Of a DNA stretch of 64,000 nucleotides, positions 8,821-42,239 are shown in pieces. The stretch is from the IMG/VR virus record IMGVR_UViG_3300044641_003209, positions 2,457 through 66,456 of that record; one strand, given 5' to 3'. The translations under genes and the position numbers were made by a program. The notes beneath the pieces are model-generated. The model was not told the origin of the DNA and made no database searches. It saw nothing but the letters and a program-made list of their open reading frames with translations. The DNA comes from a virus. How positions within the stretch are numbered: position 1 is the stretch's first letter; the number at the start of each line of letters is the position of its first letter.

Positions 8821-11800
8821 ATGCCAACACAATTTAATTGGCTTGATTTGTCAGACCAGGAAGATCAACAGCAGCGCAAAAAACGTGAGAATGATTGGCT
8901 GCAATACGCTTGGGCTGGAGAAAATCAGTTACGTGCAAAGCTGCTGGGGCTCGCTAGGGATCCAGTGTACATTACACAAGAGGATGAACGGCGTGCTTTA
9001 GACTATGAAAGAGCAACCCAACAGACTCCTCAGCGACGTGTATTTGATGAGGAGCCTGGCGTACAACGCATTGGTTCACTCAGTGCAAGTGATCAGCGTA
9101 GATGGGATGAACTGACTCCCGGAGAACGCCTAGCTCAACGCATGAGTTACGCAATGCAAACGGGTGTCGGCGGAATCCTTACTGGTGCCCGTTTGTTACC
9201 AGAGTCACAGAAGGGTGGTGGTTTCGTTGGTGAAGTCACAGACTTTGCTCGTGCCGCTGCCATGGCTCCAGGTCAAACAATCGCAGATATTGGTGGAGCT
9301 ATTGCTGATTTCGTTACAGGAAACACTGGTCGTAATCAGAACTATAACATCTACGGTAACCGCCCACAGGATTACTCGAACTATGGCGGTGTAGGTCAAA
9401 CACTTGGAAGCATTGCACCTGATATTGGACTGGCAATAGCTACTTTCGGTGGAACTGCGGCGGCCTCCACAGCAATGGCTGGCTCAAAGATTCCAGCACT
9501 TGCTCGCTTAGGTCGTATGGCTGTTGGCTCGGCTGAGGCAGCACCTACGGCCATTACAGCATTCGGTCGCGCTATTACCCCTGCCGCAACACGCCTGACA
9601 CGGGTAGCTGCTACAACGGCTGCCGCGCTTCCTACTGCTTTGAATGTAGCGCCGGAGGTGGTGGCTGGTCGCATGTCCCCAGTTGAGGGTGTAGCCATGA
9701 CTGGTATGGCTGGTCTCGGTGGCACACTTGCCGCTGGTACATGGGGCGGAAGCCGTCTAGCTAACTTCCTTTCTGACATGGGCGTCAACATGGCGACCCA
9801 AGCAGGATCGGAAGCTGTGACATTGCTACCTGGTGGGGCTGAGTTTGATGCAGCGCAGGCATGGAAGAACATGCTCTATGGCGCAGGACTTGGCGCGGCA
9901 TTCGGTGTGATGAACGCAGCACCTATGCAGGGCGAAGGTCAACGTGCTGTACTTGGTCAGCGTCCAGTAGAAGGTCCAGCTCCAACTCCAGTCGAGCCTA
10001 CGGTCACAGGTACTATGGCTAAGCCAGTACAGATCGCTCGCGAAACAGAGCGTATGCTCTTCGGTGGTGAGCCGACATTGGCAGAGACAGCTACGCCGGA
10101 GCAAGCTAACCTTGCCTTCCAGCAAATGCGTAAGCGTCCAATGGCGGATTATGCAACTCTAAGGCCAAATGAAGCTGGCGATATAACATCTCTCTCTGAC
10201 GCATATCTGCGTGGTGAAACTGAACAAGCCTACCCTGGTGTGTCGAAGTCTGCTATCGCTAACGCTGCCGACATGGAGCGTAAGACATACGCAGCATCTC
10301 TGGCTACCGAGTTCCAAGGAAACCCTGACGTACTCGTAAAACTTCTTGACTTAGAAGTACAGCCTGGTGAGATCACGCCGCAGAATGCAAAGCAAGTATT
10401 GGCATCGAAGATTGAGAACGAGTGGCTGAATCAAGCAGCCAATGGCAAGGGCCTTGCGGCGGTAGAAGGAATGCTTCGTCAGGCAGGACTGCGCCAAGGG
10501 CCACAAGCCGCAGCGCCCGCCCCTGAAACTGGCATTGCTCCTATTGCTGAAGCTCCTCCACAGGAAGCACCGACTACTGGGTTAGTGGCACCGGTTCAGG
10601 GTGTAGAACTCCCGTCCGAGGGGTATCTTCCGTACTCGCCTAGTGGATTTGAGACAGCTCGCGCAGTTAGGGAAGCTGGTATTCCTGTTGGCCCGCGTGC
10701 GGAACTTCCTGCTGCACCTGAAAGCACTGCGCCACTAGCGGGTCCTATGGAGTTGCCACCGGTAGCACCAGAAGTGCAGCAAGCTATCGACCAAGCAACC
10801 GCCGTATCCGACCTTACTGGAATCCCCGTAGAGGAAATCCTTCCGAAGGATTCCGACGCTTACCAAGCATACAGCCAGCAGCGCCTGCTCCCAGAGGCAG
10901 CGCCGATGGAACCACAGGCTCAGGAGTCTATCGCTCCGACGGAGGCGCAGCGCACCCAAGCCGAGCAACTTCCTATGGAGTTCGAGCAGAAGGCCAAGCG
11001 TAAGCGCATCGCTCGTACGATTGCACGCAATGACGCTGAGGCTTCTATCTTGGATTCAATCTCTGAGGCAGTACCCGATAAGGTGTCTGTATCCGAGACG
11101 GCTGTGGCCAGCATTGATCCGCGCGACGCTGTACCAAATAAGATTGGCCAGCAGATCGCTACATGGACTGAGCGTTTGAGTTCGCAGGCTACAGAGCTGG
11201 ATCGTTCTCGTGGCCGCCGTGCCGCAGCAGATCTGACTAAGCTCGCAGAGATGTTGCGTGGCGATGGTGCTGAGATCAAGATAGCCCCACCTACGCAAGG
11301 CTCCCGATACAGTATGTTCGAGGAGTTTGTTGCTGAACTATCCGACCTGACCCCACGCGAATTGCGTACAGCAGTTAGGGATGGACAGACGCTCTTTGCA
11401 GGTGATAACATTGAGATCAAGCCAGTGACAACTGAGGGTGCAAAGAACACCTACACGGTGAACTTCCTCAACAAGAATATGCTCGGTGTCATTGAGGATT
11501 CTTTCCTCTCTGCCCGTGAGACTGCGGCTCCGACAGTAAAGCAGAAGGCCGTTGAGTCTGAGCAAATCAGGACTACCTCTGACCGTATCTATGGAACATC
11601 GGAAGAGATCCGCGCGATCTTCGATGACGAGACTAGCCCTGATGCGATATTCCGTGAAGGTCCAGACATTGCCATGGAATCCCCAGCAGCAATGATGGAG
11701 TCTACCGGACATGATCCTTCGCTCGATGCACCGATGTTCACCGACGAAGCTGCATCTATTGAGGAGATCAAGTCTAGTTGGCGTGGCAACTTTAGCCGCG

Positions 11801-25068: not shown

Positions 25069-25214
25069 GACTGACTCCCTTCTGTGTCTTGTGATTCTGA
25101 AATACGGTATCCAAGCGATAGAAGCGCATCGTACAGTGCATCTTCTAATGTTTTCCCTTTAACTTCAAACGAATCGTTGCCGTCTAGTTCGCGGCTGACA
25201 ATGTATGTTTTCAT
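25065..25214 (-). CDS. Small hypothetical protein (49 aa, not in ORF track)
   Basis: MKTYIVSRELDG..; preceded by the TTCACAGGGAG leader; ATGA-coupled to the next gene. Confidence 0.6.
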   Translation of the reverse strand: MKTYIVSRELDGNDSFEVKGKTLEDALYDALLSLGYRISESQDTEGSQS

Positions 25215-25329
25215 GACCTTCTCCCTGTGAAGTGTTGAAACTGTTGTGCGTTGTACAGTCGCACCCCTGCCTGTAAGATACGTAAGTCCCTGCTCTCTAG
25301 TGTTATCCTACCTACGTTCTAACTCTTCA

Positions 25330-26349
25330 TCAATGGCGTTCTGTCTTGCATCGTCCGAGGACGACACCATTGAAGTCGTCGATAGGTGCGACAGGCATAA
25401 CTAGTGCCACGACCTCGCCGTTGTGCTTCGCAGTCATTGCACAACGTTGATCGCTCCCTTGCCAAATGCACCGAGGGTCGAATCCTTTTGCGTATCTAAT
25501 CATCGTAGCGTATTCCATGAACGGAAGTAGGTGCTCGACGTTGAAATACTGATCGCCATACTTCACCCATCCAAATTGTGCAGTCTGATCCACCTCGATG
25601 CTCGTCAGTCCACGAATAGCATCGGCATACGTACGCAGTACCTTATTCTCGCATACTACGTTGTATAGGTCGGACAGGTTGACGTTATACAAATCAAGCG
25701 GAATCATATTCCTGTCGTCCGCATCCTCGACGACGCGCCATGTTCTGGCTTGCGCCCCTGATTTAGAATCGTAGGATCGCGCTCCGTTCTTATTGTATGT
25801 GCCCGTTGTATCCCAGTCGGGGCATGACCCTTCGGGAAGGATCGCCAGCTTGAACCCGTCAGTCGCGCACCAGCGTTCTAGTTTATCGGCATAGTAGAAG
25901 TCGGTAAATAGCTGGCTCCGACCATACTTTTCTCCCTCGCGGCCTAGGAACTTGGCGGCCTGCTTCATGAGCGTATCCTGCGACCATTTGCGTTTCAAGA
26001 ACGTCGTGGCCTGCTTGTTCCCGTCCTTGCCTGTCTGCCATAGGTTCACAACCCTGGCCCACATACGTAGTCTGTCGGGCCAGCAACCATTGTGGTCGTC
26101 GCACTCTTGTGCATGGGCTAGGATACACGCAGTGATGACCTCGTGCGCGATTGTCTTTTTCTTCTGCGTGTACACGTCGTAACTACCACGATACTTAGCT
26201 TCTCCGCACTCGATCGAATGAGCGAACAAGCGGTATGCTTCCACTAGTCCGTCCGTCGCGCCGTGCTTGGGTTTCCATCCCGATGTTGCTACGCCCTCAG
26301 CGTATGCAATTACCATATCCATTGTCGTTGTTGCTACTGTCGTTTCCAT
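25330..26349 (-). CDS. Early protein with a sliding-clamp (DnaN)-like C-terminal region
   Basis: 339 aa; CATDGFKLA, YFNVEHL and ALVMPV resemble beta-clamp ATDGHRL / FNxxYL / lvMP motifs. Confidence 0.5.
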   Translation of the reverse strand: METTVATTTMDMVIAYAEGVATSGWKPKHGATDGLVEAYRLFAHSIECGEAKYRGSYDVYTQKKKTIAHEVITACILAHAQECDDHNGCWPDRLRMWARVVNLWQTGKDGNKQATTFLKRKWSQDTLMKQAAKFLGREGEKYGRSQLFTDFYYADKLERWCATDGFKLAILPEGSCPDWDTTGTYNKNGARSYDSKSGAQARTWRVVEDADDRNMIPLDLYNVNLSDLYNVVCENKVLRTYADAIRGLTSIEVDQTAQFGWVKYGDQYFNVEHLLPFMEYATMIRYAKGFDPRCIWQGSDQRCAMTAKHNGEVVALVMPVAPIDDFNGVVLGRCKTERH

Positions 26350-26392
26350 ATCCTACTCCCTGTGAAATGTTAGTGTCGTTGTTTATTGTGGA

Positions 26393-26418
26393 CGCATATT
26401 GCGACCGGATATTGTGAC
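26393..26418. promoter_or_regulatory. Tandem 13-bp box array (2 copies)
   Basis: CGCATATTGCGAC CGGATATTGTGAC. Confidence 0.7.
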
Positions 26419-26423
26419 CTAAA

Positions 26424-27044
26424 TCAGTACGTCCATAGCGTACCGTCTTCCGTGTACTGTTCGTCACCAGAGAATCTGCCACATCCGCTCTCGATGTCAT
26501 CACGTACTCCTTCGGACGAACAATAGTATTCTAGCTCCTCCTCGGCCGATCGTTGTAATGTACGCGCGGCATCATTGCATAGGTCCTCGAATGTGTCCGT
26601 CGTGTTAGGACGTGCCAAGAATGCGCGAATAGGACGCAGTAAATCCTCGTCAAAACATACGCCAGTGAAGGGACAACACGTAGCTTGTCGCATGATCCTC
26701 GACCTACGTTTCGGACCTCGGCCGTATCTGTCGCCATATACTTTTGCTTCGCTGAAAATATGGCCGTAGTTATTCCATAGGTACGTCGCCAAGCGCACCC
26801 CTGTCAATTCGGTTTGCCAGTCCTGCAATGCCGTGCAGTAAATACCCCAGTAACCCCTATCATCTTCCCACTTTATGCCGAAGGTATCCGCGAATGCTCT
26901 CGCGCTATCATTGCGTTCCTCGTTCCAATGGTCTGCATCTGGGTCACATTGCCGACGTTCACGCTCGGCCTCAATGATTCGGTTTTGTGCATCCTCCGAT
27001 AGCTCGGAGAATTGATATAGCTTTACTTCGATGGTCGTTGACAT
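26424..27044 (-). CDS. Early protein of the LYxFxELSxxAQ family
   Basis: Start MSTTIEVKLYQFSELSEDAQ; CPFTGVCFD; ends YTEDG; conserved leader upstream. Confidence 0.7.
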   Translation of the reverse strand: MSTTIEVKLYQFSELSEDAQNRIIEAERERRQCDPDADHWNEERNDSARAFADTFGIKWEDDRGYWGIYCTALQDWQTELTGVRLATYLWNNYGHIFSEAKVYGDRYGRGPKRRSRIMRQATCCPFTGVCFDEDLLRPIRAFLARPNTTDTFEDLCNDAARTLQRSAEEELEYYCSSEGVRDDIESGCGRFSGDEQYTEDGTLWTY

Positions 27045-27092
27045 GATGTTACTCCCGTGAATGATGGTGTTCAATTGTTTCAAAAGTTAGGA

Positions 27093-27131
27093 CGTACATA
27101 CTATACGGATATTGCAACCGTATATTGCAAA
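27093..27131. promoter_or_regulatory. Tandem 13-bp box array (3 copies)
   Basis: CGTACATACTATA CGGATATTGCAAC CGTATATTGCAAA. Confidence 0.7.
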
Positions 27132-27139
27132 CATGAAAC

Positions 27140-27571
27140 TTACTTGGCGGAGAACTTCCATTCGATAGCGTCGTACATTTTGCCAGATTTGTGGATGGGT
27201 TCCTGGCTTCCATTGTTCTTAGCAAATCTATTGAAGCATTCGACACCTACCCCTGGACTGAACGATGCCTTACCGTTGCGTACTGCGATACCGTATTGAT
27301 CGGCGATAGCGTACGCGTAATTCTCCGCCAAGAATTGACAGAATGCTTCTGATTTGTTTACTGCCTGTGCAATGGCAGCCGATAGTTTGTCGTAACCGTA
27401 GCCCGATGCTTTACCTTCCAACAGCTCGAAAGAGCTACGACCGTCTGTGTCTTTCAAGTACAGCCGTACTTCAGCACGTGGACAGTATCCCCATGTCCGC
27501 GATTTGTACCATTCGACCGAAATATCTACGGTTACTGCGACAATCGCGCGTGTTTCATTTGTCGTTTCCAT
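27140..27571 (-). CDS. Hypothetical early protein
   Basis: Start METTNE; EWYKSRTWG..ASGYGYDKLSAAIAQA..GVGVECF. Confidence 0.7.
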   Translation of the reverse strand: METTNETRAIVAVTVDISVEWYKSRTWGYCPRAEVRLYLKDTDGRSSFELLEGKASGYGYDKLSAAIAQAVNKSEAFCQFLAENYAYAIADQYGIAVRNGKASFSPGVGVECFNRFAKNNGSQEPIHKSGKMYDAIEWKFSAK

Positions 27572-27606
27572 GTTCCTACTCCCGTGAATGATGGTGTTTT
27601 TGTTTC

Positions 27607-27870
27607 TTATCCAAGATATTCGCCGTCGGCGGTCCACCTATCGCGGTCGTCGCCGTGGAAGTAATTCCATCCGCCTGTAATTGCGGATACGACAGATTCA
27701 CGAGATAGGTAGTCGGCAATTTCATCCTTAGTCATAAATCCCTCAAAATCTTCATCTGCCCTACGTTCTAACTCCTCATCAATGGCGTTCTGTCTTGCAT
27801 CGTCCGATAGCTCCGCCCAAGTATAGCCCTTTTCGTCCATTACTTTGAGCGTATAGGTTGTCGTTTCCAT
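27607..27870 (-). CDS. Short paralog of the ELSxxA family
   Basis: YTWAELSDDARQNAIDEE..WTADG; conserved leader. Confidence 0.7.
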   Translation of the reverse strand: METTTYTLKVMDEKGYTWAELSDDARQNAIDEELERRADEDFEGFMTKDEIADYLSRESVVSAITGGWNYFHGDDRDRWTADGEYLG

Positions 27871-27902
27871 TGTGTCACCCCTGTGAAATAGGTTTTTGTT
27901 TT

Positions 27903-27967
27903 GCCCTTACTTGGGCCTTAGCTCTCGCGCGCGGAATCGAACCGTGCCGTACCACCAGGGGCGAGAG
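27903..27967 (-). ncRNA. Anticodon-less tRNA-like element A plus 3' hairpin
   Basis: CUCUCGC-CCCUGGUGGUACG-GCACGG-UUCGAUU-CCGCGC-GCGAGAG, then CUAAG-GCCC-AAGUAA-GGGC. Confidence 0.65.
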
Positions 27968-27976
27968 GGCGGACAC

Positions 27977-28189
27977 TTAGACGTTCAAAACATTGCGGCC
28001 GAATTGTGGTACGTCGGCGTCCGTGAACAGCTTTGTTCGGAACCTATCGTAGCCCTCAGACTTGGCCCATTTTTTCGCATCGTCCAATTTGTTGCGCCAT
28101 AGTTCGGCGTCCGTTGTGACCCAAAGTATTTCTTCCGCCCAATCGGGGGCGTCAATCTTTACGCCCCATAGAACATATTCGTTTTGCAT
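27977..28189 (-). CDS. Hypothetical early protein
   Basis: 70 aa (EYVLWGVK..WAEEIL..PQF); conserved leader. Confidence 0.7.
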   Translation of the reverse strand: MQNEYVLWGVKIDAPDWAEEILWVTTDAELWRNKLDDAKKWAKSEGYDRFRTKLFTDADVPQFGRNVLNV

Positions 28190-28221
28190 GATAGCCCCGT
28201 GAAAGTGTGTTGTTGTTTTGT

Positions 28222-28548
28222 TTAGAAACTTGGCACGTCAACAGCATCGTAGATAGCTCGCGGATAGTGTGGTAAGCCGTTCATATATTCGGTGAGCATA
28301 GGCCCTAAATCTACCGGCTCACCACGTCGAATACATACGCCAATTGCGCCATGCTCTCGGCTTACCCTTGCATAGTTTTCATGCGTATGTATGGTCTTGG
28401 ATAGGTCATTTATCCAATAGATAAGTTTCTCGGCATCCTCGCAAGAGGAGATAGAACGCCTGGCAGACTTGCACACCTCGGCCAAGTTCTTGCCGTTGAA
28501 GTATATCGGCCGATATTGGCCAAGAAAATAAATGTTCAGTGAAAACAT
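28222..28548 (-). CDS. Hypothetical early protein
   Basis: Start MFSLNIY after the conserved leader. Confidence 0.6.
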   Translation of the reverse strand: MFSLNIYFLGQYRPIYFNGKNLAEVCKSARRSISSCEDAEKLIYWINDLSKTIHTHENYARVSREHGAIGVCIRRGEPVDLGPMLTEYMNGLPHYPRAIYDAVDVPSF

Positions 28549-28604
28549 GATGTAAGCCCCGTGAAAGTGTGAATGTAGTTTGTTACTTGCCCTAAAACAT
28601 AGGA

Positions 28605-28630
28605 CGGATATTACGACCGGATATTGTGAC
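28605..28630. promoter_or_regulatory. Tandem 13-bp box array (2 copies)
   Basis: CGGATATTACGAC CGGATATTGTGAC. Confidence 0.7.
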
Positions 28631-28696
28631 CCTATTCGTGCCAATTTTGCCAAAGGATGACTGAGCCACCAAGGACCACGACCACCAAGAAAAGTA

Positions 28697-29014
28697 TCAT
28701 CGCGAAGCCCTTTCCAATAGGTCACCTACTGAGCCGATTTTTACCCTGTGCGTCCCTGCGATACCGCCACCGAAAAATATCATCACGGTCGTATCGTATA
28801 GGTCGCCCAAGTTTAGATAGTAGATAGGTCGTCGAAAATCGCCGTCGATCTCTACCGCTTCAACGCCGCAATGACTGACACCTGCCACCTTAGCCCCGTG
28901 AAGTAGTGCCCGTTCTAGTATATCATGTTCGGACAATAGCCCGTCCGGATTATCGACACGATAGTTCTTTACTCCGCGTTCAATGTTGCGCAATGTTTCA
29001 TGCTCTAGTGTCAT
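28697..29014 (-). CDS. Hypothetical early protein
   Basis: 105 aa; GVEA..YLNLGDLYDTTV..GSVGDLLE; conserved leader. Confidence 0.7.
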   Translation of the reverse strand: MTLEHETLRNIERGVKNYRVDNPDGLLSEHDILERALLHGAKVAGVSHCGVEAVEIDGDFRRPIYYLNLGDLYDTTVMIFFGGGIAGTHRVKIGSVGDLLERASR

Positions 29015-29047
29015 AACCTACCCCTTGTGAAAATGTGACCGATACTT

Positions 29048-29110
29048 GCCCTTGTTGGGCTTTGTTCCTACCTGCGGAATTGAACCGCAGCGAACCGCCA
29101 AGGGTAGGAA
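29048..29110 (-). ncRNA. Anticodon-less tRNA-like element B plus 3' hairpin
   Basis: UUCCUAC-CCUUGGCGGUUCG-CUGCGG-UUCAAUU-CCGCAG-GUAGGAA, then CAAA-GCCC-AACAA-GGGC. Confidence 0.7.
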
Positions 29111-29120
29111 ACGAGGGGAA

Positions 29121-29435
29121 CTATTCCGCGTCGTGTGTATCTGTCTGAGCGTTGACGTATTCTATAGCCTCTTCGCAGTGTTCCGCCAATTCGCGCCAAT
29201 TTACTTTATCGACACGCAGTAGGTCGCGAAGTAGGCCGTCGATATTCGCCGTCTCTAAAATACATTCGTCGAACATATTCTTCAGATGTTGCGATAGGTC
29301 ATATACCGTATCCCCTTCGTAGAAACTCTCTGCGTATTCCATAGCCCACACATCGAGAGTGTCTCCAATATGGACGTTTACGGCCCATGTTTCGTAGTTT
29401 GTCCATCCATTGTAGGATTCGTTGTTCGCGCTCAT
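29121..29435 (-). CDS. Early protein of the YNGWxNxETW family
   Basis: SYNGWTNYETWAV..VNWRELAEH; conserved leader. Confidence 0.75.
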   Translation of the reverse strand: MSANNESYNGWTNYETWAVNVHIGDTLDVWAMEYAESFYEGDTVYDLSQHLKNMFDECILETANIDGLLRDLLRVDKVNWRELAEHCEEAIEYVNAQTDTHDAE

Positions 29436-29483
29436 GATGTAACCCCGTGAAAAATTGGTGTTTGTTTGTTTCAGAAGATAGGA

Positions 29484-29509
29484 CGTATATTCCGTCCGGA
29501 TATTGTAAC
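29484..29509. promoter_or_regulatory. Tandem 13-bp box array (2 copies)
   Basis: CGTATATTCCGTC CGGATATTGTAAC. Confidence 0.7.
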
Positions 29510-29510
29510 C

Positions 29511-29792
29511 CTAAGCGCGAATTTCGCGAATCATTGTAGATAGTTCCCTGCGGTTAAGGGCTTTGCTATTCCATGCGATCCCGTCCGGTGTGCCGTTATG
29601 GAACGTCGAACCCTCTCCCGTGTATAAATCCTCGTACCTATCTATACGCTCTCCGTATAAGGAGACAAGGCGCACAAAATCGGTGTAGCTATTAGCGGTT
29701 CGCGCGATGTTGTATAGGCTCTCCGTGTTGGATATCCATAACGCGACGTTCCATGTTTCGCGGTTAGACCAGCCGTTATATTTTGCGGACAT
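29511..29792 (-). CDS. Early protein of the YNGWxNxETW family (paralog)
   Basis: MSAKYNGWSNRETWNVALWISN..TPDGIAW. Confidence 0.75.
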   Translation of the reverse strand: MSAKYNGWSNRETWNVALWISNTESLYNIARTANSYTDFVRLVSLYGERIDRYEDLYTGEGSTFHNGTPDGIAWNSKALNRRELSTMIREIRA

Positions 29793-29957
29793 AGGGAACC
29801 CCGTGTGAAGTTTGGGAAAGATTGATTCGGAGATTGAGACGTTGTACACTACCGTTTATTGCAAACACGTCACCTCGTCTCGCTCTCTCTAAGTGTACGC
29901 AATATCCGGTTGCAATGCTCAGTTTATACACTACCACAACACCAAAAACAAAACATA

Positions 29958-29978
29958 GGGGGAGGGGGAGGGGGGGGG
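29958..29978 (+). other. G-tract at the divergence point (G5AG5AG9)
   Basis: Lies between the leftward early block and the rightward dCMP deaminase operon. Confidence 0.6.
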
Positions 29979-30221
29979 TACATCACACGCGCCCGCCTGG
30001 GGGTATTGTGTTAGTCCCCACGCACGGATTTCCAATTTTTGAAAACACTCACACCGGACAATACCGCAGCATCATCGTCTACCGTGAGTGAGTTTGTGTA
30101 TCGTCTGTACTCTACAAGATCCTTTGTGTAGCGTGAAACGCGATATAGGCTCCACAACCACCTTGCACCATATCTCCCCCACTGCGTAACTTTGCTCAAC
30201 ACACTGCGTAAAGGGAAGGAT

Positions 30222-35935: not shown

Positions 35936-36019
35936 CTTCTTCTTGCCGCCCTTGCCTACGACCTTGACTGCGCCGTAGACCTGGCCCTTGCCTTTGCTCT
36001 TGCCTGTAGCCTTCTTCAT
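35933..36019 (-). CDS. Tiny Lys/Gly-rich peptide (28 aa)
   Basis: MKKATGKSKGKGQVYGAVKVVGKGGKKK with AAGGAG RBS. Confidence 0.5.
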   Translation of the reverse strand: MKKATGKSKGKGQVYGAVKVVGKGGKKK

Positions 36020-36040
36020 GGCTGTCTCCTTAGTGAATGA

Positions 36041-36889
36041 TTAACGAATGTCGTACTTTGGATTTAGTGGCGTGTTTATATTGGCAGGGTGTTCTGGAGC
36101 TGGAACCCGTAATCCTCGTGGAATAGCTATGCGTACTGGGCGAGCCATATTGTTAGCCTTCTTTCGATCTGGGGCCATCAATATGCCATATTGTTCAAGA
36201 GCTACTTGTGGCAACACAGGCCAAGCATAAGACAGTATATCAGGATAGTTTAGTTCAGTGCCTTTATGAAAGTCATATACATCGTTGACTACAATAGAAT
36301 CCTGATCCGGCGACACATTGAAGTTAAACGATCCAAGTGCGTATTCTAAATCATGGTTTGCATCACGGTACGCTTGAGGATCTTCACTGTTTGGATTAGA
36401 ATAAATATCATGACCGACTGGAAATCTACCGACGTTATCCCTGTAAAAGCCAGGGCCTTTGTAAATGGTATTCCCGTCTCGGAGAGCATAAGCCTCGTCC
36501 TCTAGTTTGCTTAGATCAAACATGTCGGTGTTGTTTGATTTCTTTTTTGATGGCTTAGTCTTAACAAGATACTTGTTGCTTGGATTCTGTGCATCTAGCT
36601 CTTGTGGTGTAATAGTCTGAGCCAGCCTATTTTCCAGCAAAGACAGCAACCGATCTTTATCTTCTTGTGATATATCCTTCTCTGTTATTGGACCACGTTC
36701 TTTATCCAAAAATGTAGACAAATAGAATCTTTCTGCTGCACCACGTTCATCGCGAGGAGTAACCGTAGATTTTACAGCATCCCATACCTGCAACAATTGG
36801 GGAACATACGACTTTAGGGCCGCATCATTCTTTGATTGAATGTAGGCTTTAGTTACATCTGCCCAATCAATTCCAAGACTGTTCACCAC
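36041..36889 (-). CDS. Hypothetical protein
   Basis: 282 aa; ALGSF..VNDVYDF motif. Confidence 0.65.
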   Translation of the reverse strand: MVNSLGIDWADVTKAYIQSKNDAALKSYVPQLLQVWDAVKSTVTPRDERGAAERFYLSTFLDKERGPITEKDISQEDKDRLLSLLENRLAQTITPQELDAQNPSNKYLVKTKPSKKKSNNTDMFDLSKLEDEAYALRDGNTIYKGPGFYRDNVGRFPVGHDIYSNPNSEDPQAYRDANHDLEYALGSFNFNVSPDQDSIVVNDVYDFHKGTELNYPDILSYAWPVLPQVALEQYGILMAPDRKKANNMARPVRIAIPRGLRVPAPEHPANINTPLNPKYDIR

Positions 36890-37143
36890 AACTTCCTAAC
36901 TGCATGATATGCTGGTGAGAGGATATCCTTCCATGCTGGTTTGCCGTTCTTCTTAACGCCCTTCATCCGATCGAGGAACCGCTGGCGACGCTCTGGATCT
37001 TTGTGCTTGGTAAAGTCTGAATACCCCGTAGCACCGAAGTGAACCTTCTTATCCTGACCACGCGCCTTGACGCGGATCATGAGCTTCTTTCCCTTGCGGT
37101 CGGACTTGTAGTATTTCCCGACCTTCATGTCAGACTTGTTCAC
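36883..37143 (-). CDS. DUF5754-like small basic protein
   Basis: SDRKGKK..VHFGATGYSDFTKHKDPERRQRF.R..SPAYH...LW. Confidence 0.7.
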   Translation of the reverse strand: MNKSDMKVGKYYKSDRKGKKLMIRVKARGQDKKVHFGATGYSDFTKHKDPERRQRFLDRMKGVKKNGKPAWKDILSPAYHAVRKLW

Positions 37144-37146
37144 GGC

Positions 37147-37920
37147 TTACCGTTTATTTCGTTTGCTCTGTTCTATTTGGTACTGTTGCATGCGCACGCG
37201 CATAGGATCTTCTGTGTACGCAGCGGGAACTGGTAGTGGGCGGGTTAGAGCTTCAGGTACATACATTGTGCTTTGTGAACCTGGAGCCTCACGATTTTCA
37301 CCAGACCAGTACGACATATTTGTTGCACGTCCCGTACTTGTCGGTTGTACCTTAGGGTATCCTATTTGGCTTAAATCTACATAACGCTGGTAACTATCGA
37401 CAGGTGCGTTGTAAGCGTTACGCGCCTGTAGGGCATCCGAGTAGCGTTGCTTCATAAATTGGTCAACGACGCCGCCGTAGAGTGCCGCTGCTTCAGAACC
37501 CCTAGGGTCGAATCCACGAAGTTGCGCAATCTCTTGTGAGAGTGCATAAGCCTGGTCAGGAATTACCTCGCCCTGAGCGCCCTTGCGTCCAAACAGGGCG
37601 GCTCCTGGCATTTCCCGCATACCAGTAAATGTCTTTTCAGCATTAGCCCTAGCTACCTGTGGATCTTCACTGTAGAACTCGGGGCTTGCTACATAATTTG
37701 AAGCATTGGTCCGACTCGCAGCGGTTGGGCTTTGCTCTCCTAGCTGATTAGAGAATGCTCGCAATTGGGCCATCTTCTGTTGCACTTGTTCGTTGCGAAT
37801 CATTTGCTCAGCCGCGTCCCGTGCTGCTTTATCCTGAGGCGTTTCTACCGATGGCGCAAATTGCGGAACAAGATTTGGCATCATCGAGTTGAATGTCTTG
37901 CTGTTATTGAGATTCGGCAT
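37147..37920 (-). CDS. Hypothetical (possibly virion-internal) protein
   Basis: 257 aa; Gln/Ala/Pro-rich. Confidence 0.6.
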   Translation of the reverse strand: MPNLNNSKTFNSMMPNLVPQFAPSVETPQDKAARDAAEQMIRNEQVQQKMAQLRAFSNQLGEQSPTAASRTNASNYVASPEFYSEDPQVARANAEKTFTGMREMPGAALFGRKGAQGEVIPDQAYALSQEIAQLRGFDPRGSEAAALYGGVVDQFMKQRYSDALQARNAYNAPVDSYQRYVDLSQIGYPKVQPTSTGRATNMSYWSGENREAPGSQSTMYVPEALTRPLPVPAAYTEDPMRVRMQQYQIEQSKRNKR

Positions 37921-37997
37921 AGGTATCTTGCCAGAAGAGTTAATGAGACCTTTCCGACAAATTACGCAAACTTCTTAGCGGCAGCTTAGACTTTGCG

Positions 37998-38029
37998 TTT
38001 GGTTTGTACGTCATGAGACGATATATTGC
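37998..38029 (+). promoter_or_regulatory. FCB-type promoter of the replication operon
   Basis: TTTG-N20-TATATTGC. Confidence 0.55.
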
Positions 38030-38073
38030 AACAACAAGCTCACGCAGGGTGGGCGTCTTTCTTTGAAACTAAT

Positions 38074-38169
38074 CTTGTACGGCGGCGATAGCGCGTCCGA
38101 CCCCGACATAATGCGCTGCATTCCTACCCCGTGAATGTCCCTGCCCCGCCGCCGTACAAGTGTTTATTT
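38074..38169 (+). ncRNA. Structured RNA (three-way junction with C-rich loops), candidate sRNA
   Basis: Perfect 14-bp IR CTTGTACGGCGGCG / CGCCGCCGTACAAG encloses AGCGC..GCGCT and CATTC..GAATG hairpins, followed by TGTTTATTT. Confidence 0.55.
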
Positions 38170-38178
38170 GGGGATCTC

Positions 38179-38370
38179 ATGAAGAAAGAACCTCTCGACG
38201 AATTGTTCTCGCGCTTTGACAGGCAACATGACCTGTTTAATGAACAGCGACGCAGAACATTCGACGCTATTATTGAACGGCAGCTAGAGCGCTATGACAA
38301 AGCGCTGAATCGAAAGATTGACAGGCTGATACGTCCACTCAGTATCCGTCGCTTAGGGGAGGATGAATGA
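38179..38370 (+). CDS. Small hypothetical protein
   Basis: Start MKKEPL; ATGA-coupled to the next gene. Confidence 0.5.
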   Translation: MKKEPLDELFSRFDRQHDLFNEQRRRTFDAIIERQLERYDKALNRKIDRLIRPLSIRRLGEDE

Positions 38371-38636
38371 GCACCACGGATCGCGAGGACGACGTTTACG
38401 AAGATGCGTCAGGGTGGGATAAATTCAAGTATGCTATCAAAGCCGCTTGGTCAGTAATGATCAACCGGCCTATTATTGTTTACTTTGATGACGGCACAAT
38501 GTACTGTCGGTCGAATCCATTCTACCTTCAAGCGGCGGCGAAGAACCTCAACGAGATTGCTGAGGAACAGATCAATCGGCAGATAACCGACCAGATCAAT
38601 AACCTGCTTGAAATACCGAAGGTGCGTCGTAACTGA
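38367..38636 (+). CDS. Hypothetical protein
   Basis: 89 aa; GGAGG RBS. Confidence 0.65.
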   Translation: MSTTDREDDVYEDASGWDKFKYAIKAAWSVMINRPIIVYFDDGTMYCRSNPFYLQAAAKNLNEIAEEQINRQITDQINNLLEIPKVRRN

Positions 38637-39529
38637 TGTCACGGGCGGAATACTATAGGGAATATCGTCGTCGCCGAAAGGTTGCAACTGTTGCGCAACA
38701 ACCGCAACAAATCGCCAGCTCGTCGGCAGGAACGGACCTTGCTAATGACTTTATACTAAGTTTAGCGGGTTTACGGGAAGTTTGTAATATGTTGCACAAT
38801 GTTGCGCAACAAATGCAACAATCGGCGCAACAAATGCAACAATCCGTGCAACAATTGCAACATGTTGCGCAACAAGTGCAACAGTCAGTGCAACAATTGT
38901 GCAACAGTTGCGCAACACTTGATGACAAGATAAACAGCATAAATTGCAAGGACTTAGGTCAGGACGCTTCAGATATTGTTGCGCAACAATCGCAACAAAA
39001 TGTTGCGCAACACGTCGAACCTGAAAAAAAGCCAAAAAGAAAAGGTTCTTCCCCCCCTTCTTCCCCCCCCTCTCTTCCCCCTCAGACTCCCCCTTACTCT
39101 CCCCCCCTATTATCCCCCCCATCTCCAAAAGAAAAGCCCCGCGAAAATTTTGCGATTTCGTCAGGGGAAGTTGCCAAGGTCGAGCTGGACCACAACCCAG
39201 CTTTCCCCGACATCGAGGATAACCCTGACGCGCCGCTGGTCGATCCGGGCAAAGCCAAGGGCCGTGACCTTGCGACGTGGCGAGAGCTTGAGCAGGCCGC
39301 CGCCGAGATCTGGGAGGAGACGCGGAGTCACCGATTGCAGGACGCATTTTACTCTTGGGTCGAGTACAAGCAGGAACGCGGCGCCAAGGAATTTTACACA
39401 CGGAAGGGAATGATTGCGGCAGGCAAGCATTTCATCCGACGACACCTCGACGAGTTCGATGTCCACTCCGCAGTTCAGCGGGCGATCGCATCGAACTGGC
39501 AAGGGTGGGATCATGAACTGAAAAGGTAA
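38636..39529 (+). CDS. Replication initiator-like protein (lambda O-type architecture)
   Basis: Internal iteron-coded Q-rich repeats, Pro-rich linker, C-terminal W.EYK.ER..AIASNWQG domain; directly upstream of the primase-helicase. Confidence 0.65.
   Translation: MSRAEYYREYRRRRKVATVAQQPQQIASSSAGTDLANDFILSLAGLREVCNMLHNVAQQMQQSAQQMQQSVQQLQHVAQQVQQSVQQLCNSCATLDDKINSINCKDLGQDASDIVAQQSQQNVAQHVEPEKKPKRKGSSPPSSPPSLPPQTPPYSPPLLSPPSPKEKPRENFAISSGEVAKVELDHNPAFPDIEDNPDAPLVDPGKAKGRDLATWRELEQAAAEIWEETRSHRLQDAFYSWVEYKQERGAKEFYTRKGMIAAGKHFIRRHLDEFDVHSAVQRAIASNWQGWDHELKR
38681..39126. repeat. Putative replication origin: palindromic iterons plus C-rich tract
   Basis: GTTGCGCAAC at 38690, 38801, 38864, 38907, 38978 and 39002; many GCAAC half-sites; pyrimidine tract 39046-39126. 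Confidence 0.7.
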
Positions 39530-39539
39530 CGGGGTAAAC

Positions 39540-41633
39540 GTGAATCACTACAACTTTGATACGAAGAGAGTCAAGTGCCCATACTGCGGATCATCCGACG
39601 GTTTTGCTGAGCTCCTTCACCCTGACACAAAGTCTGCTGTAGGGGCGGGCGTTGGGAAGTGCCACTCGTGCAATGTGTTTCGTACGCAGACTGAGGCTGG
39701 ATTCGTCACTGACACTGGCGATCTTGTCGTTAGCAAGGGGCCAATCGAAGCAAAGTTCTTTGACGTATCCATCCTTCCGTCCAAGGGCTTGTCTGTCGAG
39801 CGATCTAATCTTGTGACCTTCGTAGAGTCGCTCATTGGTTCGGATGTTGTGCAACAGGTTGCGCAACAGATGCTGGTTTACGGCGATTCATGGGGCAATA
39901 CAAGTTTCGTCTATGCCGATGTTGAAGGACGGGGTATGTCGGTCAAGACGATCCTGTACGGAGAGAACGCCAAGCGAGATAAGACTGGCATAAAGATTGG
40001 CTCACGCAGCCTAGAGACATCGCAGATAGCTGGGTATGTTCCCGTAGAAGGGACGGTTCGTTACGTTCGTGTTGCTGACGGCGCGTATCAGTTCCTGTAC
40101 GGCCAGCAATGTTTGAAATCGAACCCGATGGCCGATGTAGTCGTGATTGTAGAGTCTGAAAAGACAGCGTTCATGGCTACCGTGTTTGCCCGAATACTGA
40201 ATGTCAAGGCTATCTTCCTCGCCGCTGGTGGAACCAATGGCGTGACGGTATCAAAACTGCGCGGATTGACACCGACCAAGGCAATCCATGAGAACTTTAC
40301 CAGCTTGATGAGCAAGAGGCAGGTTGTTATCTGCTACGACAACGACGAAGCTGGAGAAAAAGGCAGTAGTCTGTGCCAGCAAGCGCTATCTACCTTGAAG
40401 ATTGAAAGCCGGACTTTCAATATGCAAGATGTGCTTGAGGAGTACGATATAAGTCTGCCACCCGCTATGCGGCCTAAGGCAGATCTAGCCGACGTTATTA
40501 TCAATGCGATGCAAAATGGGAATATGCTCGACGAAATCGAGGTTATCCTACGTGGCATCTACAATCGGGCTAAGGGTATCGTTGACGTGCAGAACATAAT
40601 AGCCGACAACGAGCTTGAAAAGATACAGGTATCGGATTATGCCAAAGAGCCTCCTAAGCCCAGCCTGACATTCAGCGAAGCCTCAAGCGATAAGGTAAGC
40701 CAGTTAGCCATACCTGGGAATATCGTTATGCTGCTGGCGTCTCCAGGAGTCGGTAAGTCGTCGGTAATTAGCGCGATTGTAGCTCGGCATATATCGCCAA
40801 AGACGAATGCGTTTGGCCTTGACATCAATGCTCCGCGCGGCTTGGTTGTTGTCGATACCGAACAAAGCAAGGACCAAGTAGTCCAGCTCCATAAGCGTAT
40901 GGCACGCCGCATTGGATGTTACGCCGAGGAGCTGCCAGCGATGTTCGCTGAAACCAATGTGCACTGGTTTGTGTCAAACAAAAAGCTCAAGGTAGAAAAG
41001 CAGTGCGACAATCTGTTCGCCGTTGTAGCGCAGACCGATCCGAGCTTTGTGATCGTGGATCAAGTCGGCTCACTGGTCAATAACGTCAACTCGACCGAAG
41101 AGGTCCAGAGTATCATCAGGCGCATTGCCGTGGACGCAGAAACAAATCTTCGTACATGGGTGGTCGTCCTGCATACCAACCCGACTAGTGATAAGGGGCG
41201 TGGGGTTTTGGGCTCTGACATTCATCGCTGGGCCAGTTCAGTTCTATTTATCAAACGTCCTGCGGAGCCAACAGACCCGTCACTGCTGACGACGAGTAAC
41301 ATAGACGGCATTATGGCTAAGGTTCGCTCTGGGCCACCTGTGCGCTGCTTCTTTAGTTGGGACGATAGCCGAAGTGATTTTTACCCGACGAACTACGAAC
41401 CCGTGGTTGGCTTTGATGCCAGCATAGTAAAGGCCGCTATCGACGCAATCTTTACACAGGATTCCGGTATGAGTCAACCATTAAGCATGGCGGACTTACG
41501 AAAGAATCTCAAAGATGCCATGGGGTACGAACAGGGCAACCAAATGATGGGATACATCATCAAAGAGTCCATCGTAAAGCGGACGGGAAGTGGCAAACTG
41601 TGGCCAGACTACGAGAAACTTAATAGTATGTGA
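39540..41633 (+). CDS. Primase-helicase (Zn finger + TOPRIM/DUF6371-like + RecA-like AAA helicase)
   Basis: CPYCGSSD..KCHSC, IVESEKTA, CYDNDEAG, Walker A ASPGVGKS, VDTEQ, IVDQV, VLHTN, RGVLGS. Confidence 0.85.
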   Translation: MNHYNFDTKRVKCPYCGSSDGFAELLHPDTKSAVGAGVGKCHSCNVFRTQTEAGFVTDTGDLVVSKGPIEAKFFDVSILPSKGLSVERSNLVTFVESLIGSDVVQQVAQQMLVYGDSWGNTSFVYADVEGRGMSVKTILYGENAKRDKTGIKIGSRSLETSQIAGYVPVEGTVRYVRVADGAYQFLYGQQCLKSNPMADVVVIVESEKTAFMATVFARILNVKAIFLAAGGTNGVTVSKLRGLTPTKAIHENFTSLMSKRQVVICYDNDEAGEKGSSLCQQALSTLKIESRTFNMQDVLEEYDISLPPAMRPKADLADVIINAMQNGNMLDEIEVILRGIYNRAKGIVDVQNIIADNELEKIQVSDYAKEPPKPSLTFSEASSDKVSQLAIPGNIVMLLASPGVGKSSVISAIVARHISPKTNAFGLDINAPRGLVVVDTEQSKDQVVQLHKRMARRIGCYAEELPAMFAETNVHWFVSNKKLKVEKQCDNLFAVVAQTDPSFVIVDQVGSLVNNVNSTEEVQSIIRRIAVDAETNLRTWVVVLHTNPTSDKGRGVLGSDIHRWASSVLFIKRPAEPTDPSLLTTSNIDGIMAKVRSGPPVRCFFSWDDSRSDFYPTNYEPVVGFDASIVKAAIDAIFTQDSGMSQPLSMADLRKNLKDAMGYEQGNQMMGYIIKESIVKRTGSGKLWPDYEKLNSM

Positions 41634-41692
41634 TTGAGAAATTGCATAGTATGTGACGATATATTGCGCGATATCTTAATCTAGAATCGCCC

Positions 41693-41914
41693 ATGATAGA
41701 CGGTAGTCAGCGTCAGCCGCAAGGTGCAGCTATATCTTTTTCATTCTTCGCCATTGGACAAGTATTTCAGTGGCTTAGTGAACCAACGGTTGTACAGGCG
41801 TTGAAAGACTATCTGTCGATTATCTCATTCTTGATTTCGATTACCGTTGGACTGATTTCACTTGCGGCTACCATACGCAAGATGGGCAATAAGAACAAGC
41901 GATCGAAGGATTAA
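41693..41914 (+). CDS. Putative holin
   Basis: Two hydrophobic helices and a basic C-terminus; first gene of the lysis cassette; TATATTGC promoter box at 41660. Confidence 0.55.
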   Translation: MIDGSQRQPQGAAISFSFFAIGQVFQWLSEPTVVQALKDYLSIISFLISITVGLISLAATIRKMGNKNKRSKD

Positions 41915-41915
41915 C

Positions 41916-42239
41916 ATGAGCTTTTTGAAGTCGATCTGGCGTTGGGCCAGTAAGCCAACCATGAACAAGCTATCAGCCGCTTTGTGCGTCGTGTTCTTGA
42001 TCTTGTTCCTACTTTCGTTCTTTCAGACATCTGGCGAACTTTCGTACTTCCCTGCCGCCTGGCTATGTTCTGCCGGTATTATCACTTTGGTTTATTTGGT
42101 TGATCGAGTCGGCTTCGCTAAGATTGACACCATTGCATACCTCAAAACCAAACCAGATGTCTACTTCAAAATCGTTCTTCCGATCTATGTGGCTGGTATT
42201 GTTATTGGCCACATCCTCGCACTGCTTCTCGCTTGGTAA
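41916..42239 (+). CDS. Membrane protein (holin/antiholin-like)
   Basis: Three predicted TM segments. Confidence 0.55.
   Translation: MSFLKSIWRWASKPTMNKLSAALCVVFLILFLLSFFQTSGELSYFPAAWLCSAGIITLVYLVDRVGFAKIDTIAYLKTKPDVYFKIVLPIYVAGIVIGHILALLLAW

Follow-up and report, generated by a model that had tools for sequence, protein, structure and literature searches.

In the viral genome IMGVR_UViG_3300044641_003209, an IMG/VR record of 66,456 bases that CheckV rates as complete, a gap of 258 nucleotides (nt) lies between two divergent genes, one of which is encoded on the minus strand (37147-37920) whereas the other, at 38179, opens an operon of replication genes on the plus strand. All positions given here are those of the window, by which we mean the whole stretch of 64,000 nt that was analysed (positions 2457-66456 of the record). 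The operon begins with an open reading frame (ORF) of 63 amino acids (aa; 38179), followed by an ORF of 89 aa, the gene of a 297-aa protein with VAQQ repeats, and a primase-helicase gene (39540). The gap in front of it holds the element that is the subject of this work, a promoter-like site followed by a hairpin and a three-way junction of helices. In a preliminary description of the window this element had been taken for a discrete small RNA of about 95-140 nt whose loop is antisense to the leaders of ten early genes. Our analysis makes it likely that the element is a structured plus-strand leader RNA of a kind absent from Rfam, and it shows that one of its hairpins is complementary to the leader shared by the early genes.

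The centre of the element is a perfect helix of 14 base pairs (bp), P1. With its arms CTTGTACGGCGGCG and CGCCGCCGTACAAG (38074-38087/38147-38160) it is longer than any other perfect inverted repeat of the window whose loop does not exceed 120 nt, the array of VAQQ repeats excepted; by simple arithmetic about 0.03 such 14-bp repeats would be expected in 64 kb. In minimum free energy (MFE) folds of the plus strand P1 closes a three-way junction (38074-38160) with two further hairpins. P2 (38090-38096/38111-38117) carries the loop CCGACCCCGACAUA (38097-38110, mean unpaired probability 0.80) with the motif ACCCCG at 38100-38105, and P3 (38118-38124/38131-38138) carries the loop UACCCC (38125-38130, unpaired probability 0.98) with a second ACCCCG at 38126-38131. 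These are two of the seven occurrences of ACCCCG on the plus strand of the window, and they lie 26 nt apart. The junction strand J3/1, CCCUGCCC (38139-38146), is predicted to be fully unpaired (probability 1.0), and over the loops and the junction strand together the mean unpaired probabilities range from 0.77 to 1.0, with 0.77-0.98 for the two C-rich loop motifs. On the 5' side of the junction the MFE folds contain the hairpin P0, GCUCAC-GCAGG-GUGGGC (38038-38054, loop 38044-38048), which is followed by GUCUUUCUUU, and on its 3' side the U-rich tail UGUUUAUUU (38161-38169) leads to a GGGG resembling a Shine-Dalgarno (SD) sequence (38170-38173) and to the ATG at 38179, the tail and the start codon together spanning 38161-38181. 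Both the sequence and the MFE folds thus bear out the stem enclosing two hairpins with ACCCC loops that had been described earlier.

The plus-strand fold moreover outperforms shuffled sequences, with a z-score of -2.78 that 1 of 200 shuffles equals and one of -3.17 that 0 of 200 equal, whereas the minus strand does not stand out from its shuffles (z -1.06, equalled by 30 of 200). These z-scores, the G.U pairs and the compensatory changes found in relatives (see below) indicate that the functional strand is very probably the plus strand read as RNA, which is also the strand that the preliminary description had favoured. No Rfam family matches the window at its gathering score, the sole match to 37900-38250 at E<=10 is an unrelated model of a long non-coding RNA, and at E<=1 the corresponding stretches of the relatives L011 and L012 have no match either.

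Where would such an RNA start and end? Upstream of P0 a promoter-like site can be read, TTGGTT (37999-38004)-N17-TATATT (38022-38027), the latter within GACGATATATTGC (38017-38029), so that the site as a whole spans 37999-38029 on the plus strand; its -35 and -10 hexamers agree with the consensus in 3 and 5 of 6 positions, respectively. This reading fits better than the promoter with TTTG-N20 spacing that had been proposed before, of which the -10 part stands: the motif TATATTGCA with the -10-like TATATT is present 5' of the leader in all four loci compared, with the counterparts TTGGTG-N17-TATATT in L011, TTGTGC-N17-TATATT in L012 and TTGGAG-N17-TATATT in L013. A second exact copy of GACGATATATTGC (41655-41667) lies directly 3' of the primase-helicase gene and ahead of the next plus-strand ORFs, in a region where all genes are on the plus strand, which supports the plus orientation of the motif. 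The expected start of transcription lies a few nt ahead of P0, and a hairpin is found at the expected 5' end in 4/4 loci. At the other end, the distance from P1 to the first ATG is 19 nt in the window and about 21-22 nt in L011 and L012, that is, it is kept in all three loci that bear the element. A scan flags P0 as terminator-like and U-runs follow both P0 (GUCUUUCUUU) and P1 (UGUUUAUUU); the P1 helix, however, closes a multibranch loop rather than a simple hairpin, and a start codon follows after only 19 nt. The equivalent helices of L011 and L012 are not followed by a U-run, the one after P1 being confined to the window. Because of this lack, and because of the constant 19-22 nt to the start codon, the RNA is more likely to be the 5' leader of the replication-operon mRNA than the discrete small RNA of about 95-140 nt initially proposed. 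Attenuation at the U-run after P0 is possible, although that U-run is not conserved in the relatives. Taken together, the strand bias, the G.U pairs, the placing of TATATT, the 5' hairpin and the fixed distance between P1 and the start codon all point to a 5' leader on the plus strand.

The primase-helicase has 40 homologues besides itself (26-66% identity), and the DNA upstream of the gene was compared for three relatives. L011 and L012 are metagenome contigs (primase identity 47-48%), and the stretches of them that were compared do not include an early-gene block; the third locus, L013, lies in G004, a record of 65,283 bases that is rated complete. L011 and L012 are syntenic with the window from the gene of the 297-aa protein onward, whereas the genes upstream of it are unrelated: neither the 63-aa nor the 257-aa gene product of the window resembles its L011 counterpart, and the first genes behind the element are not homologous between the lineages. 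At the same place, L011 and L012 nevertheless have the TATATTGCA motif, P0, a three-way junction and a C-rich junction strand of 7 nt, UCCCACA. Their P1 measures about 19-21 bp (ACCCCUUACUAGCGGUGG / CCACCGCUGGUAAGGGGU) and encloses two hairpins, P2 and P3, and despite the shared topology the helix sequences show no resemblance to those of the window. Again the plus-strand folds stand out (z -6.80 for L011 and -5.02 for L012, 0 of 200 shuffles each), as compared to -3.58 for the minus strand of L011. For L011 and L012 together RNAalifold predicts 42 pairs, two of which are supported by compensatory changes (one in P2 and one in P3) and five by one-sided changes between G.U and A-U, while none is broken. 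In addition, L011 and L012 differ by a 1-nt indel that puts the sole open minus-strand frame across the element out of register, which argues that nothing is encoded there on the minus strand.

A tertiary contact appears to be shared as well. In the window the P0 loop GCAGG (38044-38048) is complementary to CCUGC (38140-38144) of the junction strand, with a duplex energy of -6.8 kcal/mol; the P0 loop of L011 and L012 reads GUGGG and can pair with CCCAC of their junction strand, likewise with -6.8 kcal/mol, a pairing that can be extended to 10 bp. With two covarying positions in two independent lineages only, the P0 loop and the junction strand are a candidate pseudoknot. The extended pairing in the relatives corresponds to a perfect 10-bp complement, GTGTGGGACA/TGTCCCACAC (3901-3910/4008-4017 in L011 and 1144-1153/1255-1264 in L012), which overlaps the apex of P0 as well as P3 and the junction strand and is in competition with parts of both hairpins. 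The element of the relatives may therefore switch between two predicted folds rather than form a static pseudoknot.

The early genes to which the element was thought to be antisense occupy 25214-29810 on the minus strand. A leader of the form TTCAC(A)GGG[GA]-N4-10-ATG precedes the start codons at 25214, 26349, 27044, 27571, 27870, 28189, 28548, 29014, 29435 and 29792. The regular expression for this leader finds 11 minus-strand sites in 25214-29792, ten of them ahead of an ATG (ORFs of 49-339 codons), so that the count of ten early genes stands with the correction that an eleventh site, at 28888, belongs to an internal GTG. The only further minus-strand site in the window is the one at 38121, within the element. 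The genes just downstream in the minus-strand block carry GGGAG, GGAGG or a similar sequence at an equal distance from their starts, and since the spacing is the same, the GGGG/GGGAG core of the leader can be identified as the SD sequence; the fixed distance of 4-10 nt to the start codons likewise marks the motif as a translation signal. The early leader thus combines an SD core with (U)UUCAC as a private extension on its 5' side. Duplicated modules, which include promoters and the 5' ends of coding regions, make up the early block. Among the duplicated pieces are 25311-25358 / 27760-27807 (98% over 48 nt) and 27027-27122 / 29418-29513 (72% over 96 nt, promoter and leader included). Given such near-identical pieces the early genes are a family of duplicated cassettes, and the uniformity of their leaders results at least partly from duplication.

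The segment TTCCTACCCCGTGAATG of P3 (38121-38137, hereafter the anti-leader) reads as the reverse complement both of the leader that the gene at 27571 carries, CATTCACGGG(A)GTAGGAA, and of the core TTCACGGGG in the other early leaders. Aligned to 27573-27590 it matches in 17/18 positions, with a single gap, and the matches pointed out earlier at 29017 and at sites of CCCCGTGAA are equally real. CCCCGTGAA occurs in five exact copies, all on the plus strand (28195, 28557, 28894, 29443 and 38127), four of them within the early block and the fifth within P3; 0.37 copies would be expected and none of 100 shuffles reaches five. If one mismatch is allowed the excess is not significant (16 versus 10.2 expected, a number reached by 7 of 100 shuffles). 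In IMG/VR the 17-mer of the anti-leader has four exact matches, all in unrelated coding sequence and about as many as expected by chance.

Pairing was predicted between the RNA 38034-38169 and 89 start regions defined by a crude ORF and SD rule, 9 of which belong to leader genes and 80 to others. When the energy needed to open the two partners is added to that of the duplex, leader genes take places 1-4, 6, 7 and 9, six of these seven by way of P3. The best partners are the genes at 29435 (-10.2 kcal/mol), 29014 and 27571 (-7.7 kcal/mol each) and 28189 (-4.7 kcal/mol), while 29792, 28548 and 26349 are ranked 6, 7 and 9. As a control, the junction interior (38088-38146) was subjected to 150 mononucleotide shuffles and compared by raw duplex energy. 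The mean of the native interior is -22.3 kcal/mol with the 9 leader regions versus -16.6 kcal/mol with the other 80, and this difference of 5.7 in favour of the leaders is reached by none of the 150 shuffles (shuffle mean +2.3, standard deviation 1.55); the minus-strand RNA gives +6.7. The complementarity to the early leaders, which occupy seven of the top nine places among 89, hence goes beyond what base composition would give. By these predictions the complementarity is real and specific, and its energies are moderate.

From the computed fold, conservation, promoter-like motif and complementarity we infer transcription, the ends of the RNA, its pairing in vivo and the effect of this pairing as follows. 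Transcription would probably start about 7 nt after TATATT (38022-38027) and yield a plus-strand RNA that is the 5' leader of the replication operon with its 63-aa, 89-aa, 297-aa VAQQ-repeat and primase-helicase genes. This RNA would fold into P0 at its 5' end and the P1-P3 junction, probably joined by the GCAGG:CCUGC pseudoknot. Once the replication operon is transcribed, the loops, whose ACCCCG is the complement of the SD core CGGGGU, would seed pairing with this core in the TTCACGGGG leader of the early mRNAs and so lower their translation or stability. The acting form might be the mRNA leader itself, a fragment ended at P1 and its U-run, or a fragment cut from the long P1 helix. Trans silencing of early mRNAs by open ACCCCG loops of the leader or of a fragment is the reading that we prefer, but we hold it tentatively and with somewhat less than even confidence. 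If it is true, a single RNA made together with the replication genes turns down the whole class of early messages of a lytic phage via a shared tag.

Several observations weigh against this reading. Some concern the pairing itself. To open P3 costs 10-11 kcal/mol, which leaves modest net energies of -10.2 to -2.9 kcal/mol. Two of the 9 leader genes, at 27044 and 27870, fall outside the best 25 of the 89 start regions, a third, at 28548, is reached via P0 and not via the anti-leader, and by raw energy the leaders rank only 3, 5, 6, 7, 8, 18, 32, 33 and 45. Given the many duplicated modules of the early block, the inverted leader copy in P3 could also be a relic of recombination. Others concern transcription: a consensus scan of 37700-38400 found 0 sigma-70-like promoters and so does not call the site, TATATTGCA when reversed is similar to the latter half of the early promoters and could for this reason be a minus-strand promoter or an operator, and none of the 24 metagenome runs listed with a matching stretch is an RNA run.

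The relatives provide the remaining points. The element is known from two independent lineages only, and in L011 and L012 neither the P2 nor the P3 loop contains ACCCC, the P3 loop differing even between these two. G004 has TTGGAG-N17-TATATTGCA and genes homologous to those of the 89-aa and 297-aa proteins but no 63-aa gene, and its syntenic site consists of a leader of about 70 nt with a simple hairpin in place of the three-way junction. It keeps a variant leader, TCAAGGGC-N6-7-ATG, at four of five plus-strand sites and hence at no fewer than four (>= 4) early genes, while TTCACGGGG is absent from G001-G004. The anti-leader 7-mer occurs twice in G004, both times inside minus-strand ORFs where a plus-strand RNA is not expected. 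The preliminary description had named relatives that keep the leader motif but lack the loop as speaking against its proposal, and G004 goes part of this way, in that its leader is a variant one and the element is missing. The element is accordingly a dispensable accessory of the family rather than an essential part of an origin or an essential switch.

Could the element then be a leader that acts purely in cis? It might serve as a stabiliser, as a protein operator near the ribosome binding site (RBS), as a helix for RNase III or as an attenuator, the anti-leader being incidental or derived by recombination. We regard this as possible, if rather doubtful. It would account for the conservation of the architecture but not of the loop sequences, for the constant distance of 19-22 nt between P1 and the start codon, and for the hairpin at the expected 5' end, which even L013 has. 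P1, which measures 14 bp here and about 19-21 bp in L011 and L012, is long enough for RNase III, and the duplicated leader modules of the early block could have been the source of a copy at 38121. Among known phage leaders, the pseudoknot leader of T4 gene 32 and the hairpin operator of T4 gene 43 are cases in which replication genes are autoregulated through structure next to the RBS (PMC3014915), and like the gene 32 leader the element is a conserved structure directly 5' of the RBS of a replication operon in the three loci that bear it. However, a 17/18 match together with a second ACCCCG in the other apical loop is improbable by chance (0/150 shuffles), and no common protein partner is evident since the first genes are not homologous between the lineages. 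An additional pairing in trans would moreover remain compatible with a role in cis.

We consider it improbable that the same complementarity, which fits either way, works in the reverse direction, such that the early mRNA leaders pair with P3 and P2, remodel the replication leader and thereby relieve attenuation or open the RBS, so that early transcription licenses the replication genes. The U-runs after P0 and P1 and the terminator-like P0 would suit this arrangement, as would the finding that in a longer fold the SD GGGG is unpaired with a probability of only 0.4, but the equivalent helices of L011 and L012 again come without U-runs. Quite improbable is a function at the level of DNA, be it as a single-strand or cruciform signal for priming or helicase loading or as a protein site, with TTCACGGGGTA as a duplex operator shared with the early genes. 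Structured single-strand initiation signals exist in phage G4 and RSF1010, and the element does head the replication module, about 520 nt 5' of an array of TGTTGCGCAACA palindromes (described below). Yet in G004 the primase-helicase and the repeat protein are encoded without the element, which is therefore not an essential part of the origin; the fixed spacing of promoter and start codon, the G.U pairs and plus-strand bias and the complementarity of loop and junction strand favour RNA, and the fixed distance of 4-10 nt between leader motif and start codon marks a translation signal. Finally, the notion that the minus strand is read here, either as an eleventh early leader for a 36-codon ORF (38011-38121, from the ORF list and the leader expression) or as a decoy RNA with GGGG loops, is highly improbable, because, although CATTCACGGGGTAGGA-ATG (CACGGGGTAGGA-ATG at 38121) has the form and spacing of an early leader, there is no AATATNCGKNY promoter motif to its right, the next minus-strand ORFs of a crude list lie beyond 48 kb, the fold is no better than shuffles, the 1-nt indel between L011 and L012 breaks the frame and the start codon sits inside a hairpin stem; the decoy and mini-ORF alternatives of the preliminary description are disfavoured accordingly.

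How would a leader that silences early messages in trans compare with known systems? The loops of the c4 RNA of phages P1 and P7 pair near the RBS of ant (PMC12197685). The element resembles c4 (RF01695) in being a structured phage RNA within a longer transcript whose loops are complementary to RBS sites of the phage's own mRNAs (PMC12197685), a property that is predicted here. Unlike c4, however, it does not match the Rfam C4 model, and whereas c4 acts on a target just downstream on its own transcript, a single gene (ant), in lysogenic immunity, the proposed targets here are about ten early mRNAs from the opposite strand. They are 8-13 kb away, in an apparently lytic phage, and have only GGGG in common with the SD sequence of the operon itself; the fold is a different one, too, a three-way junction with P0 and a pseudoknot. 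The CI RNA of P4 groups with the c4-type RNAs. Among bacterial RNAs, RsaE and RNAIII bind the SD sequences of several mRNAs through unpaired C-rich loops and block initiation (PMC2790875). Several unpaired C-rich loop motifs, as in RsaE/RoxS and RNAIII of Staphylococcus and Bacillus, are predicted for the element too, but the former are free-standing bacterial RNAs with a terminator of their own, whereas the latter is a phage element that adjoins the start of an operon, has no sequence relation to them and has a seed that reaches into the phage-specific UUCAC tag beside the SD sequence. With no match to a model, targets in trans, no delimited small RNA shown and another fold, the element belongs to neither c4 nor RsaE/RNAIII. 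An end of early expression via features shared by early RBSs is also known from the shut-off by RegB and RegA of T4 (PMC3014915). T4 relies on proteins for this, namely a nuclease and repressors, whereas here the proposed agent is an RNA.

Among titles and the opening parts of abstracts, no published case was found of a phage RNA that silences the phage's own early set via a shared RBS tag, and in the available part of a 2025 review of phage small RNAs the phrase 'own genes' does not occur and 'early' appears in one reference title only. A new class of riboregulator, in which a pseudoknotted three-way junction in the leader of a replication operon provides an early-to-middle switch without a RegA- or RegB-like protein and in which the scaffold is kept while the loops are re-tuned or lost along with changes in the leader of each phage, is possible but in our view rather doubtful. 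Apart from the pairing, P0, the three-way junction and the contact between loop and junction strand make up a conserved RNA structure without a match in Rfam that heads a replication module.

The gene directly behind the element (38179-38370, plus strand), the first of the operon, has 63 codons and a basic, helical product of no family, for which a search of the ESM Atlas gave no match. In a contig from run X8 the stretch 38268-38353 contains eight changes, seven at third codon positions and one TTA>CTA, and because of this pattern the frame is under purifying selection; judged by its codons, the ORF is a real gene. The 257-aa gene on the other side (37147-37920, minus strand) has no homologue, and nothing matching it is found in G001-G003.

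Further downstream, the palindrome TGTTGCGCAACA (12 bp) occurs in at least 6 copies at 38683-39013, inside the ORF 38636-39529, together with TGTTGCACAA variants. The copies encode the VAQQ repeats of the 297-aa protein, 5' of the primase-helicase gene. In L011 (4319-4508) and L012 (1563-1752) the palindrome is kept at the DNA level, whereas the protein is just 36-37% identical (tblastn). The contigs L008, L009 and L010 and the record G004 each start or stop within this gene; L008-L010, which are IMG/VR relatives, break inside the repeats and for this reason come without the element. The array may be an origin with iterons inside the gene of its initiator, an arrangement comparable to the origin iterons within lambda O. 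Searches of species genomes for further relatives gave no match, and none was obtained when the palindrome pair or the stem of L011 served as search pattern, while a scan for a motif of the 89-aa protein returned only the L013 contig and one for the N-terminus of the 297-aa protein returned L013 and an unrelated locus, L014.

As to the genome as a whole, the proteins of the window include a P22-type portal protein, an SU10-type capsid protein, a large terminase, a RecE-like exonuclease and the primase-helicase, which is of the DUF6371/Toprim/AAA_25 type. Three giant proteins have no Pfam family, one of them matching a virion structural protein in PHROGs. A blastn search of GenBank phages with 36000-42000 gave 0 matches, and near-identical DNA is present in metagenome runs from lake water and freshwater. 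Four DNA runs were compared with the window; the element is covered by X5 alone, which is identical to the window over 37800-38421, with 0 differences in the element.

The early block shows some further features. Its promoters consist of two tandem 13-nt units with the motif AATATNCGKNY, at 26390/26403, 27103/27116, 28602/28615 and 29481/29494 on the minus strand and at 29901 on the plus strand. In the window this motif occurs in 10 copies versus 1.7 expected, a number that none of 100 shuffles reaches, and the spacing of its units does not match sigma-70, which suggests a phage-specific polymerase or regulator. In G004 the early leaders are preceded by another conserved motif, ACCAGTACGACCGTA..GTATAAC. 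Between early genes lie tRNA-like minihelices (27905-27985 and 29050-29125 on the minus strand; about 11260-11300 and 9900-9960 in G004), which lie immediately 5' of the next promoter or leader and consist of an acceptor-like stem of 7-8 bp and a T-arm with GGTTCGATTCC or GGTTCAATTCC. No tRNA or tmRNA gene was found in the window, where ARAGORN calls no tRNA, and the minihelix folds are no better than shuffles; they may be processing signals for RNase P and RNase Z. Finally, a G-run on the plus strand, GGGGGAGGGGGAGGGGGGGGG (29958-29980), lies between the divergent early units, and the corresponding place in G004 is C/G-rich.

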